This document shows positions 587 to 6,097 of a DNA stretch of 32,000 nt, piece by piece. The notes under the pieces were generated by a model. That model saw only the letters and a program-made list of their open reading frames with translations, had not been told where the DNA came from and ran no database searches. Source of the DNA: Ferroglobus placidus DSM 10642 (lineage in GTDB: Archaea > Halobacteriota > Archaeoglobi > Archaeoglobales > Archaeoglobaceae); the NCBI RefSeq assembly GCF_000025505.1, contig NC_013849.1, forward strand, positions 1,080,001 to 1,112,000, read 5' to 3'. Numbering within the stretch: the stretch's first letter is position 1; the number at the start of each line of letters is the position of its first letter. A program made the position numbers and the translations under genes.

Positions 587-1419
587 AATTAATACTGCTT
601 TTTGGTGCACTTATTTTTCTTTTAGCGTCTTTTTTGTTAACGAATTCGGACATTTATTTTGAGGGAGGTACGATCAAAAATCAAATCGGTGAACATTACG
701 GATTAAACGAGATATACGTTCACTACTACTCAGGTTTTTTTAACTTCCTAATTTGTACAACCTCAGCGCTCATAATCGTTATTGCCGAAAGGAGAGCAGA
801 AATAGGAGGTTGGAATTACGTCGCTTCTGGAATATTTTTTAATGGTCTCGTCGGATTTGGCGAGGTTGCAGAGCACTTCTTTAAACCCTTTTTGCACGAC
901 TTCTTCCACTACTTCCACATTTATTCCGGATTTTTTAGCCTACTTCTTCTATACTTGGGAGTAAAACTAATTCTCTCCTCGATAGTTGGAAACAACATTT
1001 CCGAAAGAAAATCGATTATCGCCGCAAGCCTAATACTCCTACTCTTTTTATCTCTCCTAACCTCAGTAAAAACAACCGAAAAGTGGGATCCTCGATTTGA
1101 AATTCCTGTGATGTCAATTCTTTTGATTCCCACAATTCTCCTGACGATCCTTTTAGTTTACGACGCCTACAAAATTTTTCAGGAATCCGGCTTTGTAATG
1201 GTAACTCTAACGTCTTTTGCAGTGTTCGCCATGCTTTTACAGCTCGTAATAATTCTCGGGAGAATTTCGGATATAATGGGAAACGCTTACTTTTACACGA
1301 TAACGCACTCGATACAAGATCTCCTCCACGTAGCCTCTGCAACAAATGCCCTCATATTTGCCGTAACTTTAAACATGACATTTAAAAAGATAAAAAGCGT
1401 CGAAGAGATTATACTTTAA
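583..1419 (+). CDS. Polytopic membrane protein (about 8 TM) with a His-rich helix; function unknown
   Basis: ATGA overlap with the ArsR stop (583-586). There are eight hydrophobic segments. A His cluster reads FGEVAEHFFKPFLHDFFHYFHIY. I recognise no family. Confidence 0.7.
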   Translation: MKLILLFGALIFLLASFLLTNSDIYFEGGTIKNQIGEHYGLNEIYVHYYSGFFNFLICTTSALIIVIAERRAEIGGWNYVASGIFFNGLVGFGEVAEHFFKPFLHDFFHYFHIYSGFFSLLLLYLGVKLILSSIVGNNISERKSIIAASLILLLFLSLLTSVKTTEKWDPRFEIPVMSILLIPTILLTILLVYDAYKIFQESGFVMVTLTSFAVFAMLLQLVIILGRISDIMGNAYFYTITHSIQDLLHVASATNALIFAVTLNMTFKKIKSVEEIIL

Positions 1420-2077
1420 CTTCTTCGAGTAGCTTTTCCAAATTTTCTGCGTCCAACTCCACAAATCTCTTCGTCAGCCTTGCAACTCCGACATAGAAAG
1501 GCTCTTTCGATTCAGCTTCAACAACTTGACAGAATTTTGGTACCCACTGCAATATGTGTTCTCGCAAAAATCTCATCTCCAGTTCCAAAAATTCTCTCGC
1601 TTTTTCAGAATCTTTTCCCCACGCTTCCATTTCCTTGTAGCAAAGGAGTGACATGAACTTCAACTCCACTCCTATGTAATCCTGCGGACCCTCCTCTTCC
1701 TCAATTATTCCAAATCCGGCTTCGCTGTAAAATTTCATAACCGCCAACGTCGTCTCTCCCATAACCCTTTCTTCTCCTCTGTAAACGGATTCGTAAGGCG
1801 GAGGGGGACTGTAACCTTTTTTAATACCCCTGAAGAGCCTCGTAAATTCTACTGCCAGCCTTTCAGATAGATCATCGAGGTCGTCATCAAGGCTACTCTT
1901 AATTAACTCGATCGCATCGGAAAACTCTTCTACATTCTCAGGAAGCTTTTGCTTTAATTCTTTAAGAAACTTCTTATCAGGTTTTTTCAAGTAAAAATCG
2001 CTCAGCAACCAGTAAACCTTACTCCTCATTTCCGCAAGGCTCTTAAGAAAATTCGAGTCCATAAGGTACCGCCCCAA
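1409..2077 (-). CDS. TorD/DmsD/NarJ-family molybdoenzyme maturation chaperone
   Basis: The protein is 222 aa. It has the family-typical E-F-T-R-L-F-R-G motif, an acidic helical composition, and the last position in a molybdopterin oxidoreductase operon. Confidence 0.75.
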   Translation of the reverse strand: MGRYLMDSNFLKSLAEMRSKVYWLLSDFYLKKPDKKFLKELKQKLPENVEEFSDAIELIKSSLDDDLDDLSERLAVEFTRLFRGIKKGYSPPPPYESVYRGEERVMGETTLAVMKFYSEAGFGIIEEEEGPQDYIGVELKFMSLLCYKEMEAWGKDSEKAREFLELEMRFLREHILQWVPKFCQVVEAESKEPFYVGVARLTKRFVELDAENLEKLLEEVKV

Positions 2078-2090
2078 AAATAAAAAAGAG

Positions 2091-2522
2091 TTATTCTGAA
2101 GCTTGCCCGTACCAAGGCGTCGCTATTCCTCCTTCTTTGTGGCAGCCAAGGCAAACTCCTCTGTCAACGACTCCTGGCGCCCCTTCTGGTTTCTTGTACT
2201 TCCTCTCGTAGAGGACGTCTTTGGCGTAATCCGGAATGTGGCAAGCCGTGCAATCTAAGCCAAGAACTTTAGCGTGTATTTTGTGGAATCTCCCCTCCAA
2301 AGTCATGTCGTAGTTGTTGCCAACGTCGATCTCTCCGCTTCTTATTTTTTCAGCTATCTCCTTCAAGCTTGCATATCTTGTCATTTGTTCCGTAGGTGTT
2401 GCTTCGGATGTCGGCGTTTTTTCTGGAGTGGGCGTTTGCTTGACCTCTTTCCCAGTTTGAGCGCATCCGGCAATTACCAATGCGATTGCTAAAAGCATTA
2501 ACGCCAGCAGCTTCATTCTCAT
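2091..2522 (-). CDS. Lipoprotein dihaem c-type cytochrome
   Basis: The signal peptide with lipobox is MRMKLLALMLLAIALVIAG-C20. A Thr/Pro/Glu-rich linker follows (TPTPEKTPTSEATPTEQ). There are two CxxCH motifs (CTACH, CLGCH). Its start overlaps the upstream stop (TGATG). Confidence 0.8.
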   Translation of the reverse strand: MRMKLLALMLLAIALVIAGCAQTGKEVKQTPTPEKTPTSEATPTEQMTRYASLKEIAEKIRSGEIDVGNNYDMTLEGRFHKIHAKVLGLDCTACHIPDYAKDVLYERKYKKPEGAPGVVDRGVCLGCHKEGGIATPWYGQASE

Positions 2523-3208
2523 CAGTAATCACCTCCCTCCAAGACGTAGTAGACTTGAGGTCTCGTTCCGTACTCTTTCTTGAGTTGCGTCGCTTTCTTC
2601 TTCGCTATTATCTTCGAAACCTCGCTGTTCGGATCGTTTATATCTCCAAAGTGCCTCGCTCTAACTGGGCAGACAACGTCGCATGCTGGAGTGTACTCGG
2701 GATCTTTGCCGATTAAGTGAGTTTTTCCCTCTTCAATGGCTTTTTCTATACGGTGCCAGCAGAACGTGCATTTTTCCACTGTATTTTCCTTCTTCCTGTG
2801 AGTCCAGTGCCTGTTCTCGTAGGGAATGTTCTCGTAAGGTGTTTTACCTCTGCCGGGGAAGAGATTCTTAATTTCCTTTATGTACTGGGGAGCTCCGTAA
2901 GGACAGACAGCTATGCAATACTTGCAGCCTATGCACTTTTCGTAGTCGATTAAAACTACACCGTATTCATTTTTCGTTATCGCTCCTACTCCAATAGCAT
3001 CGCAGGCTCTCTTACATGGCGGATCTTCGCAGTGCATGCAGTTCATCGGAACGAATACTCTCCTGACGTTGGGGAACTTACCGACTTCATATTCTATGAC
3101 GAAGTTCCAAGGGTTTCCGGGAACGTAGAAGTTTTCGTTCATGCAAGCTGCGACACAAGCTCTGCAACCAATACACTTTGTCGTGTCGATAACTCTCACG
3201 AGCTTCAT
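2522..3208 (-). CDS. Molybdopterin oxidoreductase 4Fe-4S (four-cluster, DmsB/PsrB/ArrB-type) electron-transfer subunit
   Basis: Four cysteine groups are present: CIGCRACVAAC, CMHCEDPPCKRAC, CIGCKYCIAVCP and CTFCWHR...CDVVCP. The protein is 228 aa with no signal peptide of its own. A GGTGGT SD lies 3 nt upstream of the ATG. Confidence 0.9.
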   Translation of the reverse strand: MKLVRVIDTTKCIGCRACVAACMNENFYVPGNPWNFVIEYEVGKFPNVRRVFVPMNCMHCEDPPCKRACDAIGVGAITKNEYGVVLIDYEKCIGCKYCIAVCPYGAPQYIKEIKNLFPGRGKTPYENIPYENRHWTHRKKENTVEKCTFCWHRIEKAIEEGKTHLIGKDPEYTPACDVVCPVRARHFGDINDPNSEVSKIIAKKKATQLKKEYGTRPQVYYVLEGGDY

Positions 3209-3217
3209 ACTACCACC

Positions 3218-5698
3218 TCACGCCTTGTAAATCCTAACCTTGGTGTCGTTGAAGCTGTTCATCCCCGAAACCATGTCAGGATGGTATTCCAGTATCTTGT
3301 TCACCCAGCTTCCCTTCCTTGCCCATTCCGGATATCCCGGACTCCAGTGACCGTAGTGGTAGGAGATAGCTACAGTGTCGGGACGAATCGCTTCGGTTAC
3401 TCTCGCTATCGCCACGAGTTTCCCGACTCTCGATTCAACCACAACTTTGTCCCCGTCGTCAATTTTCAGCTTTCTTGCAGTTTCTGGGTGAATCCAGACG
3501 TCGTTGTAATCGGAGTCGTGAGATACCTGATTCAAAATCGGATTTACGTTGCAGTAGCCGCTCTGATTTCTGTACATTCTCTTGAACGTTATCAGGTAGA
3601 GCGGGTAGTCTTTCGCTTTCTTATGCGGAGTTGGATAAGCGTGCTCTTTCCTTGGAATAGGTGAAAGCCTTATCTTCACTTCCTCCTCGACATTTTCCGT
3701 TTCGTACCACTCCTCGAAAACCTTCCTTATGTTCTCGTGTTTGTTCATCAACTCGATTACTTTTTCAGCGGAGTGAATCAGCTCCTCGCAGTATAAGTGC
3801 ATCTTCGGTTTGTTAGGACCTTTGAACTTCTCCTCAGCTCCGTGCAAGTACCTCTCTTCCACGCTAACGAACTTTCCGTAGAACCCGTCTCTCATTCCTT
3901 GCTCTATCGGCTGTCCGGTTTTGTTCCTCCAGAGGATGTCGAAAGCGGCTTTTGCGTCATAGTCTTTACCCTTTTCGAACTTCGGATTCTTGAACTTGAA
4001 CTTCTCGTTGATCTTTTCCAAGAACTCGTCGTAGAAGCCAGCTCTTTTCGCAAGTTCAAACATTATCTCAAGGTTCTGGTAGGGTATGTTGAACACGTTG
4101 ACTATCGGATAGTGTAAAGTGTGGTGTCTTGCATGCGGCGTCCATCTTCCGCCGTAGTAGCCGAAAGCTTCGAGGTAGGTTTTGTCTGGAAAGACTACGT
4201 CAGCGTACCAAGCAGTTTCTGTCATCGTTATATCAATCACGACGTTGAAAGTTTTTGCAAGAGCTTCGAACTGCTTTTCCGCATTTGATGTCGAGAAAGG
4301 TCTGTTGGTTGCGAAGAATATCTGCATTTCCGGCTTGTAATCGAAACCGTACTTTTCCGGATCGAGCATGCTGAACATGGCTTGCTGCGCAACATCATGA
4401 GTTGCGTGTGGCAAGAAGACGCTCTTCTTTAAGTCTATCCTGCTCGGCGGGTATTCGCATTTCGAAGGCTTCATGTACTTTTCGCTTCCCGGCTTGTGAA
4501 GCAGGAAGCCACCAACTGCATCTATAGCTCCCACGAGTTGCATTACAATTAAGGCTGCTCTCCAGTTCTGAGTACCATGCTCTTTTGCAGAAAGTCCTCT
4601 GAATGTATAGATTGCCACAGGTCTATATCTCAACTCTTTTCCGTCTATGACAATTGTAGAGCCAATTCTTGCGTTTTCTCCAAACTCTTTAGCAATTCTC
4701 CTTATCTGCTCAGCAGGAACTCCGCACTCTTCAGCGACGCTTTCTGGTGTTATGTCTTTAACGTAGTCCGCAAATACCTGAAATGCCGTTCTGTACTTCT
4801 TTCCATCTATCTCGTATTCTCCTTCGAGAGCCGGGACAACTCCCTCAACGTAGGGCTTTGCTGAGTTGGTTACCGTGTCCCAAACGAGAGGATTGCCGTT
4901 TTCGTCCCTCAAGAACTTGCCGTCTTCACCTACAAGAAATGGAGCGTTCGTGTAGTTTACCAGGAAATCTCTGTCGACGTACCCCTCGCTTATCAGCACG
5001 TTAGCCATCGCAAGCAGAAAGAGAACGTCTTTTCCGGGTCTGATTGGAACCCACTCGTCAGCTTTAGCTGCCAGATTGCTGAGCCTCGGCTCAACAACCA
5101 CGAGCTTCATTCCCCTCTCCTTCGCTTCAATGGTCGCATGGTCAAGCCATCTCGCCCATTGATCAGCTTCGAAGTAGTTTCCACCCATGTTTATCAGGTA
5201 GTTGCAGTATTCCAAGTCTGGCAATGCCCCGTGACCTCCCCATGTTATCTCATCAGCAACGTGCCTTGAAGCCTCACATGTTGTGGTTCTGTGAATCATG
5301 TTCGGCGTGCCGAAAGCTGCAGTAAATGCTTTCATCCACTCGTCGTCAAGCAGATACTTTCCGTGTCCGTGGTGCCATACGAGCTTCCTCGGGTCGCTTT
5401 CCCTTATCTGCTTGAGCTTTTCAGCTACTATGTTAAAAGCCTCTTCCCAGCTTATCTCCACCCAGCCCGGATCCTCGTTCGGTCCTTTCTTAGGATTCGT
5501 TCTCTTCAGAGGTCTCTTAAGCCTGTAAGGGTTGTAGGTGTTCCACATTCCAGATACTCCCTTCGGACAGTTGCCCCAGTTGAAGTATGGTGCTCTCTTC
5601 TCATCCGGATATATCGCCCTAATAACTCCGTTCTGCACCTTCACTTTAATTCCGCAGAAGTTCACGCACATCTTGCAGGTCGATTTGTAGTACTTCAC
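3218..5698 (-). CDS. Molybdopterin (bis-MGD) oxidoreductase catalytic subunit, Psr/Phs/Ttr/Arr-like clade (mature part as called; see the Tat leader feature)
   Basis: The N-terminal FS0 motif is C-x2-C-x3-C-x28-C (CKMCVNFC...NCPKG). A candidate Mo-ligand Cys sits in FGTPNMIHRTTTCEASRH. The C-terminal MGD-binding beta-barrel reads VWIHPETARKLKIDDGDKVVVESRVGKL. The ORF is 826 aa and is called from GTG 5698. Confidence 0.93.
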   Translation of the reverse strand: MKYYKSTCKMCVNFCGIKVKVQNGVIRAIYPDEKRAPYFNWGNCPKGVSGMWNTYNPYRLKRPLKRTNPKKGPNEDPGWVEISWEEAFNIVAEKLKQIRESDPRKLVWHHGHGKYLLDDEWMKAFTAAFGTPNMIHRTTTCEASRHVADEITWGGHGALPDLEYCNYLINMGGNYFEADQWARWLDHATIEAKERGMKLVVVEPRLSNLAAKADEWVPIRPGKDVLFLLAMANVLISEGYVDRDFLVNYTNAPFLVGEDGKFLRDENGNPLVWDTVTNSAKPYVEGVVPALEGEYEIDGKKYRTAFQVFADYVKDITPESVAEECGVPAEQIRRIAKEFGENARIGSTIVIDGKELRYRPVAIYTFRGLSAKEHGTQNWRAALIVMQLVGAIDAVGGFLLHKPGSEKYMKPSKCEYPPSRIDLKKSVFLPHATHDVAQQAMFSMLDPEKYGFDYKPEMQIFFATNRPFSTSNAEKQFEALAKTFNVVIDITMTETAWYADVVFPDKTYLEAFGYYGGRWTPHARHHTLHYPIVNVFNIPYQNLEIMFELAKRAGFYDEFLEKINEKFKFKNPKFEKGKDYDAKAAFDILWRNKTGQPIEQGMRDGFYGKFVSVEERYLHGAEEKFKGPNKPKMHLYCEELIHSAEKVIELMNKHENIRKVFEEWYETENVEEEVKIRLSPIPRKEHAYPTPHKKAKDYPLYLITFKRMYRNQSGYCNVNPILNQVSHDSDYNDVWIHPETARKLKIDDGDKVVVESRVGKLVAIARVTEAIRPDTVAISYHYGHWSPGYPEWARKGSWVNKILEYHPDMVSGMNSFNDTKVRIYKA

Positions 5699-5820
5699 TT
5701 CTCCCTCGTTGAAAGGCTTGGAGCTCTCGACAGCTTTTGCGATCTTCGAGATGTCGGTGAAAACGCCAAAGCGGATAGCGCTCCTATTCCCCTTAAAAAT
5801 TCTCTTCTCGTTACTCCCAC
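5695..5820 (-). other. Twin-arginine (Tat) signal-peptide coding segment, shifted by one frame relative to the catalytic-subunit ORF
   Basis: GTG 5820 gives VGVTRREFLRGIGALSALAFSPTS...REK*, which contains the TRREFLRG Tat consensus and an h-region. The stop TGA 5697-5695 overlaps GTG 5698 of the 826-aa ORF. The 826-aa frame stays open upstream to 5821. Confidence 0.75.
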
Positions 5821-5825
5821 ATTAA

Positions 5826-5832
5826 CCCCTCC
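5826..5832 (-). promoter_or_regulatory. Shine-Dalgarno site for the Tat-leader start codon
   Basis: Minus-strand GGAGGGG lies 5 nt upstream of GTG 5820. Confidence 0.55.
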
Positions 5833-6097
5833 GAAGTCGTATCAATGAACTTTTATACGAGAAACCAGTTATAAAGTTTACGAAAATTAAAAGCGTTCTT
5901 ACTCTTCTAATTTACTGCATTCATCTTCCCTTTTGAAATTATTAATTCTGATATTTCGAGACAAAACTTCCGAAAATCTCCAGTCTACTTCTTCCTGTTG
6001 GCTCAGCTTCTGCACATTTAAGGAAAAATTTCAAAGCTACATGATAGTTTTTTAATCAACCGCAAGAGTTAAGTGTTTTATTTGAGCTAAGTAAGCT

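Follow-up and report, generated by a model that had tools for sequence, protein, structure and literature searches.

A one-nucleotide frameshift probably separates a twin-arginine leader from its molybdoenzyme in the sequenced Ferroglobus placidus type strain

The 32,000-nucleotide stretch of the Ferroglobus placidus DSM 10642 chromosome analyzed here (NC_013849.1, positions 1,080,001–1,112,000; hereafter the window, to which all positions refer unless otherwise stated) carries on its minus strand a gene for a catalytic molybdoenzyme subunit (alpha) whose predicted twin-arginine translocation (Tat) leader lies in a different reading frame from the enzyme itself. The locus raises the question of whether leader and enzyme are the halves of a broken gene, an intact gene misread in sequencing, a gene read through by recoding, or an arrangement that is functional in its divided form. 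The comparisons described below argue that a real and recent one-nucleotide deletion, carried on the chromosome of the type-strain culture that was sequenced, has very probably detached the leader, and what results is most likely a commonplace frameshift allele of this strain, a known class of event.

The leader open reading frame (ORF) is preceded by a Shine-Dalgarno-like GGAGGGG (5826–5832), separated by the 5 nt TTAAT from the start codon GTG 5820, and extends for 41 codons (5820–5695, VGVTRREFLRGIGALSALAFSPTSRRSQKLSRAPSLSTREK) to the stop TGA 5697–5695. Its residues 4–10, T-R-R-E-F-L-R, agree with the Tat consensus (S/T)-R-R-x-F-L-K, and codons 1–19 (5764–5820, VGVTRREFLRGIGALSALA) comprise this twin-arginine (RR) motif and the first part of the hydrophobic region (h-region) in the ancestral frame. 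The Pfam model TAT_signal matches residues 3–19 with 16.7 bits (E 0.007), a score below its cut-off of 22.7 bits. After ...ALSALAF the leader frame exits the h-region into SPTSRRSQK..., and for the resulting out-of-frame tail (FSPTSRRSQKLSRAPSLSTREK, 5695–5763 including the TGA) no similarity to sequences of the relatives was found. It is the −1 frame that encodes the A-K-A cleavage site and the enzyme. That frame is open in the 5' direction as far as 5821, where it is bounded by TAA 5824–5822, and it reads ...NRSAIRFGVFTDISKIAKAVESSKPFNEGE(V)KYYKSTCKMC across GTG 5698. Its 22 codons at 5699–5764 (VFTDISKIAKAVESSKPFNEGE) encode the remainder of the h-region, the A-K-A site, and the mature N-terminus, and are no longer linked to a start codon of their own frame. 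The catalytic subunit ORF of 826 amino acids (3218–5698) begins at GTG 5698, which overlaps the stop of the leader ORF (GTGA) and has GGGAG 4 nt to its 5' side. No single frame of the window contains a complete h-region, an A-x-A site, and the cargo; the features of a full Tat signal peptide occur together only in a conceptual composite of the two frames and in relatives. The original prediction, made from the letters of the window alone, had placed leader and enzyme in frames differing by a one-nucleotide deficit. Its Shine-Dalgarno sequence, GTG 5820, 41 codons, TGA, GTGA overlap, 826-residue length, and limit at 5821 are all verified in the sequence, and the passage from leader frame to enzyme frame is indeed a −1 shift.

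Comparison with relatives indicates which state is the older. The orthologue from a sister Ferroglobus lineage (WP_290902406.1, named 'molybdopterin-dependent oxidoreductase [Ferroglobus sp.]') is 93% identical in amino-acid sequence across the 826 residues of alpha and encodes leader and enzyme in one ORF of 867 codons, starting VGVTRREFLRGISALSALAVFSDISKIARA / VGVTRREFLRGISALSALAVFSDISKIARAAENSKPFNEGEVKYFKSTCKMC. The first 19 leader residues of the window are identical to this in-frame leader at 18 of 19 positions, and because of this degree of identity within the genus the match is ascribed to homology, with chance excluded. Eleven of the 19 leader codons differ between the two sequences, ten of them synonymously and one by a Gly/Ser exchange; such a preponderance of synonymous differences marks the stretch as coding sequence that is judged to have been under long past purifying selection in the leader frame. 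The Shine-Dalgarno sequence is kept in the sister as GGAGGGA, and the GTG start and the upstream region are also conserved. A genome of the same order has an 869-codon ORF with an RR leader of its own in frame, and the 90% identity cluster to which the window protein belongs contains four environmental assemblies of the sister lineage (867 amino acids) and three 872-residue relatives, all of them intact. More broadly, among the 120 best homologues, which are 56–88% identical and extend into Beta- and Gammaproteobacteria, an in-frame RR motif is present in 111; the remaining nine begin within the h-region or later and resemble truncated gene calls. These truncated calls aside, no natural member without a Tat leader, and hence cytoplasmic, occurs among the 120. 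An alignment with related operons had been proposed together with the original prediction, on the understanding that orthologues devoid of any RR motif would make the leader peptide fortuitous; the leader is instead in frame in the relatives, the sister included. As reconstructed from these alignments, the ancestral gene is shown to be a single 867-codon ORF.

The position of the lost base can be narrowed by the same comparison. A DNA alignment with the sister contains a lone 1-nt gap, which falls in the window sequence, and the enzyme frame can be aligned, starting at GTT (5764–5762), with the sister's VFSDISKIARAAENSKPFNEGE. Beyond the junction nine codons differ, five synonymously and four nonsynonymously. 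Base G 5764 serves both as the last base of Ala-19 (GCG) and as the first of Val (GTT), and the lengths add up: 19 leader residues, 22 enzyme-frame residues, and the 826 of the catalytic ORF make 867, exactly the length of the sister protein. DNA alignments and codon-by-codon comparison thus place the deficit at GC^GTT (5764–5765), and the simplest reading, as we infer it, is that the third base of the Ala-19 codon was lost from GC[N]GTT, just 5' of a T4 run. This is favored because the sister has GCT GTT TTC (ALAVFSD) at the corresponding place, and it puts the most parsimonious missing base outside any homopolymer. The junction at 5765/5764 falls inside the interval 5757–5775 in which a frame switch had been predicted to lie. 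The accompanying proposal that one extra T would repair the gene (...ALAFFTD) is tenable to the extent that the length would be equal, but the resulting Ala-Phe-Phe places Phe where relatives carry Val, Ala, or Ser, and the nearest relative favors GC[N]GTT.

Close orthologues that join both pieces in one ORF, together with a break that amounts to a simple indel, are what a frameshift pseudogene presents, provided that the lesion exists in the DNA and not in one assembly only. A sequencing artefact, in which the true chromosome has one base more and the gene is a normal, intact 867-codon Tat precursor, had been the first explanation offered with the original prediction, as a homopolymer or assembly error. 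It draws plausibility from the age of the genome (2010), which was built in part on 454 data, from the T4 run that adjoins the junction, and from the unusually high number of apparent single-base frameshifts in the genome, for which 87 pseudogenes, or 3.4% of genes, are reported (PMC3236036). For these 87, real decay in a culture-collection strain and residual errors of the 2010 assembly are both conceivable. Evidence on the junction itself comes from three de novo run-level contigs of the Logan resource, SRR3923786 (a 90-kb contig), SRR019237, and SRR019238, all of which match the window without difference across 5640–5900, junction included; the lesion is thus present in assembled contigs beyond the reference. 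An 817-residue gene call, which starts from the ATG of MCVNFCG and is otherwise identical to the window, is present on five Logan contigs, these three among them. The SRR3923786 contig has 0 differences to the window over 8,454 bp, and this error-free match over a 90-kb contig suggests deep short-read data. The assemblies of SRR019237 and SRR019238 each have one private indel elsewhere, in the Fe-S gene (∼2977) and in a transglutaminase gene (∼8320), and because of these private indels they are independent of the reference. As an observation on those two runs, the indels split the Fe-S and transglutaminase genes there and look like run-specific errors rather than variants. Their accession numbers make it probable that SRR019237 and SRR019238 stem from the original project and so are not fully independent, a point in favor of an artefact. 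Against it stand the agreement of the three assemblies at the junction, two of which have indels of their own elsewhere, the difference-free match of SRR3923786, and the location of the likeliest missing base outside a homopolymer. The finished genome of strain AEDII12DO (DSM 10642) moreover rests on 245x coverage from Illumina and 47x from 454, with curation by GenePRIMP (PMC3236036). On this balance an artefact is distinctly unlikely, and a genuine frameshift, also among the options originally listed, gains support from both the relatives and the run-level assemblies.

A second way to retain a functional gene would be recoding, with programmed −1 ribosomal frameshifting or transcriptional slippage restoring the full-length Tat precursor at a useful rate. 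The required shift is −1, the downstream ORF is wholly intact, and there is an archaeal precedent for programmed −1 frameshifting in the fucA1 alpha-fucosidase gene of Saccharolobus solfataricus, which uses the slippery heptamer A AAA AAT. The region around 5757–5775 (GCU UUG GCG UUU UCA), however, contains no X XXY YYZ heptamer; U UUG GCG comes closest but departs from the pattern in its second triplet, and no run of T exceeds T4, far short of known transcriptional-slippage tracts. The 106 nt downstream have a minimum free energy of folding of −22.6 kcal/mol, compared with a mean of −23.6 for shuffled sequences (z 0.32), so that no stimulatory structure is apparent; the intact sister sequence likewise folds no better than its shuffles (z 0.41). 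The two-frame arrangement, furthermore, occurs in no examined relative, including the 93%-identical sister, and any recoding signal would be unconserved. Recoding is accordingly regarded as highly improbable, and the slippage option of the original prediction is not upheld. A truly split arrangement with a separate 41-residue Tat-like peptide, another of its options, is argued against by the in-frame relatives and by the synonymous pattern across the junction. When the whole genome was scanned for further short ORFs carrying a credible Tat leader, none was found, indicating that a split leader is not systematic in this organism. One candidate from the scan, a 28-codon ORF at genome position 1769289 on the minus strand (...SKRREFIRGYSTVSAC, containing SKRREFIRG), was judged a chance occurrence, there being no enzyme homology downstream in any frame. 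A recoded precursor would read ...ALSALAVFTDISK across the junction.

If the deletion is real, ribosomes starting at GTG 5820 would make a 41-residue peptide of 19 genuine leader residues and 22 nonsense residues, with a shortened h-region and a basic nonsense tail, and would end at TGA 5697–5695. Alpha could then arise only from a start further downstream: some ribosomes may re-initiate at GTG 5698 and produce a leaderless 826-residue alpha subunit; such termination-reinitiation is plausible because the stop overlaps the start (GTGA) behind GGGAG. Alpha without its twin-arginine leader would not be exported by the Tat pathway, and neither would the iron-sulfur (Fe-S) subunit beta, which has no signal of its own and would depend on alpha, whereas the cytochrome partner would still be exported through its own signal. 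The original prediction had likewise presumed that the Fe-S subunit hitch-hikes with alpha, which is consistent with the lack of a signal peptide in beta. On these predictions the alpha-beta unit is probably not Tat-exportable. Since alpha and beta would then stay inside while the cytochrome goes outside, the operon is probably null for external respiration.

The same leaderless product could be read in the opposite sense, as a selected cytoplasmic enzyme: an 826-residue alpha made by termination-reinitiation at the GTGA, loaded with cofactor, and associated with beta. The overlap of the 41-codon ORF with GTG 5698 and the GGGAG 4 nt upstream would suit this function; the 826-residue product retains the Fe4S4 motif in full together with the two molybdopterin domains and is 14 residues shorter than the mature protein predicted from cleavage after A-K-A; further lesions are absent. 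The GTGA and the Shine-Dalgarno-like GGAG are, however, ancestral coding sequence (N-E-G-E-V) shared by the intact sister gene, and hence a coincidence rather than an adaptation. The cytochrome partner still has its export signal, so that the electron path would break, and a very recent mutation explains the intact ORF equally well. No Tat-less natural member is found among the 120 best homologues, apart from the truncated gene calls. Relocalisation by selection is considered unlikely.

Recent loss of the leader by deletion agrees with the state of the remaining sequence. The ratio of nonsynonymous to synonymous substitution rates (dN/dS) against the sister is 0.027 for alpha and 0.018 for beta, no other stops or shifts occur in the 2.5 kb, and the rest of the operon has no second lesion. 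The synonymous divergence (dS) from the sister is saturated (1.4–2.0), and the ratios consequently show the absence of visible relaxation but give no age. Neither relaxed selection nor further decay is thus seen, which fits a very recent event and leaves loss of function unproven. Because the substitutions remain strongly purifying and no second lesion is present, we infer that the deletion is recent relative to the species split. The DNA used for the genome was from a DSMZ culture supplied with acetate and Fe(III) citrate (PMC3236036), and growth of this kind may not require the enzyme. The deletion may date from the wild, from the culture collection, or from laboratory growth.

Several points weigh against a real, inactivating deletion. 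Assembled contigs hide minority variants, and culture heterogeneity or a systematic error shared by the runs is formally possible; the junction lies beside a T4 run, where 454 sequencing can miscount. The 826-codon ORF is fully intact, which also fits a leaderless enzyme still under selection, or some compensating mechanism. The accessible papers contained no expression, proteomic, or phenotype data on the operon. Other searches also gave nothing: a pattern scan of metagenome and genome contigs for intact or broken alleles from the wild, in which the flanks of the F. placidus site were set 9 or 10 bases apart, gave 0 matches for each spacing, a look-up of the exact 41-residue peptide in assemblies returned no record, no literature was found on locus tags Ferp_1255-1260 or on the run accessions, and the operon is unmentioned in articles dealing with Geoglobus, A. 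neptunius, and P. delaneyi.

The split gene is the first of a four-gene operon on the minus strand that encodes the catalytic alpha, the Fe-S beta, a small dihaem lipoprotein cytochrome c, and a TorD-like chaperone. Alpha belongs to the molybdenum-bis(pyranopterin guanine dinucleotide) (Mo-bisPGD), or dimethyl sulfoxide (DMSO) reductase, superfamily, with Molybdop_Fe4S4 (PF04879, 29.9 bits), Molybdopterin (PF00384, 105.8 bits), and Molydop_binding (PF01568, 83.2 bits) each above the Pfam gathering score. Its best NCBIfam match is PhsA (NF012032), at 290.2 bits against a cut-off of 694, and ArrA reaches 186 of 1600; among solved structures, ArrA (6cz7) and Thermus PsrA (2vpw) are closest. By sequence relationship alpha is placed in the Psr/Phs/Arr clade. 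Assignment to PhsA, PsrA, or ArrA specifically was rejected, the scores being far under the curated equivalog cut-offs. The genome has no second member of the alpha family, the best paralogue of alpha being 33% identical over the N-terminal quarter; other molybdoenzymes occur in F. placidus, and the Tat machinery is represented by two TatC and two TatA genes.

Downstream of alpha, domain searches identify beta (2522–3208, minus strand) as a four-cluster Fe-S subunit of 228 amino acids without a signal peptide of its own, 95% identical to that of the sister. The third gene (2091–2522, minus strand) encodes a 143-residue protein whose translation includes a signal peptide, a lipobox-like ...VIAGC, and the haem motifs CTACH and CLGCH, with weak matches to paired-CXXCH models. 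This protein also has a Pro/Thr/Glu-rich linker and is 76% identical to its sister counterpart, compared with 93–95% for alpha and beta, with a dN/dS of 0.083. The fourth gene (1409–2077, minus strand) encodes a 222-residue maturation chaperone of the TorD/NarJ family (Pfam Nitrate_red_del, E 4.6e-30), for which the NCBIfam matches of TorD/DmsD type are all under cut-off. No gene for an NrfD/PsrC-type membrane anchor is present within 1409–5832.

The cassette of alpha, Fe-S beta, a small protein of 110–140 amino acids, and a TorD-like chaperone is shared by Archaeoglobi and Beta- and Gammaproteobacteria with alpha identities of 56–60%, a distribution that suggests horizontal transfer. In Sulfuricystis multivorans (AP018718.1, 24086–38665) the cassette lies beside genes for flavocytochrome c sulfide dehydrogenase, TusA, and ArsR, and also adjoins a low-molecular-weight phosphatase/ArsC-like gene and an Acr3-like (SBF) gene; these neighbors hint that the cassette enzyme acts on a sulfur or arsenic compound.

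For annotation, the consequence is a correction. Public records list the 41-residue peptide and the truncated enzyme (826 residues; 841 residues) as separate proteins, which on the reading of a recent deletion are two halves of one broken Tat precursor. Three starts are annotated for alpha, giving 841 residues, 826 residues (GTG 5698), and 817 residues (Logan, from the ATG of MCVNFCG), and none recognizes the broken leader; the 841-residue record starts MAKAVESS... on an ATC (Ile) codon at 5741–5743 on the minus strand, 15 codons 5' of GTG 5698. The operon should not be entered unchecked as a working exported reductase in metabolic reconstructions of F. placidus, one of which explains thiosulfate respiration by "several molybdopterin oxidoreductases" (PMC4600277). 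Should the true substrate be among those ascribed to the species in its description, the phenotype of the sequenced culture may depart from that of the original isolate. Beyond annotation and physiology the mutation is an ordinary one and opens no larger question.

The arrangement can finally be set against three known systems. The sister Ferroglobus orthologue shares with the window the GTG start, the Shine-Dalgarno sequence, the leader (18 of 19 residues), and the beta and cytochrome genes downstream, but is encoded in one reading frame, whereas the window is without one base at the Ala-19/Val-20 boundary. The fucA1 gene resembles the locus in having two overlapping ORFs at a −1 offset that jointly encode one protein, but the window has neither a slippery site nor a stimulatory structure nor conservation of the arrangement. 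The enzyme itself resembles PsrA, PhsA, and ArrA in the domain order Fe4S4, molybdopterin, and dinucleotide-binding, in the Tat leader present in its relatives, and in its association with a four-cluster Fe-S partner and a TorD-type chaperone; in contrast to PsrA and PhsA, it has as third subunit a small dihaem lipoprotein in place of an NrfD/PsrC membrane anchor.

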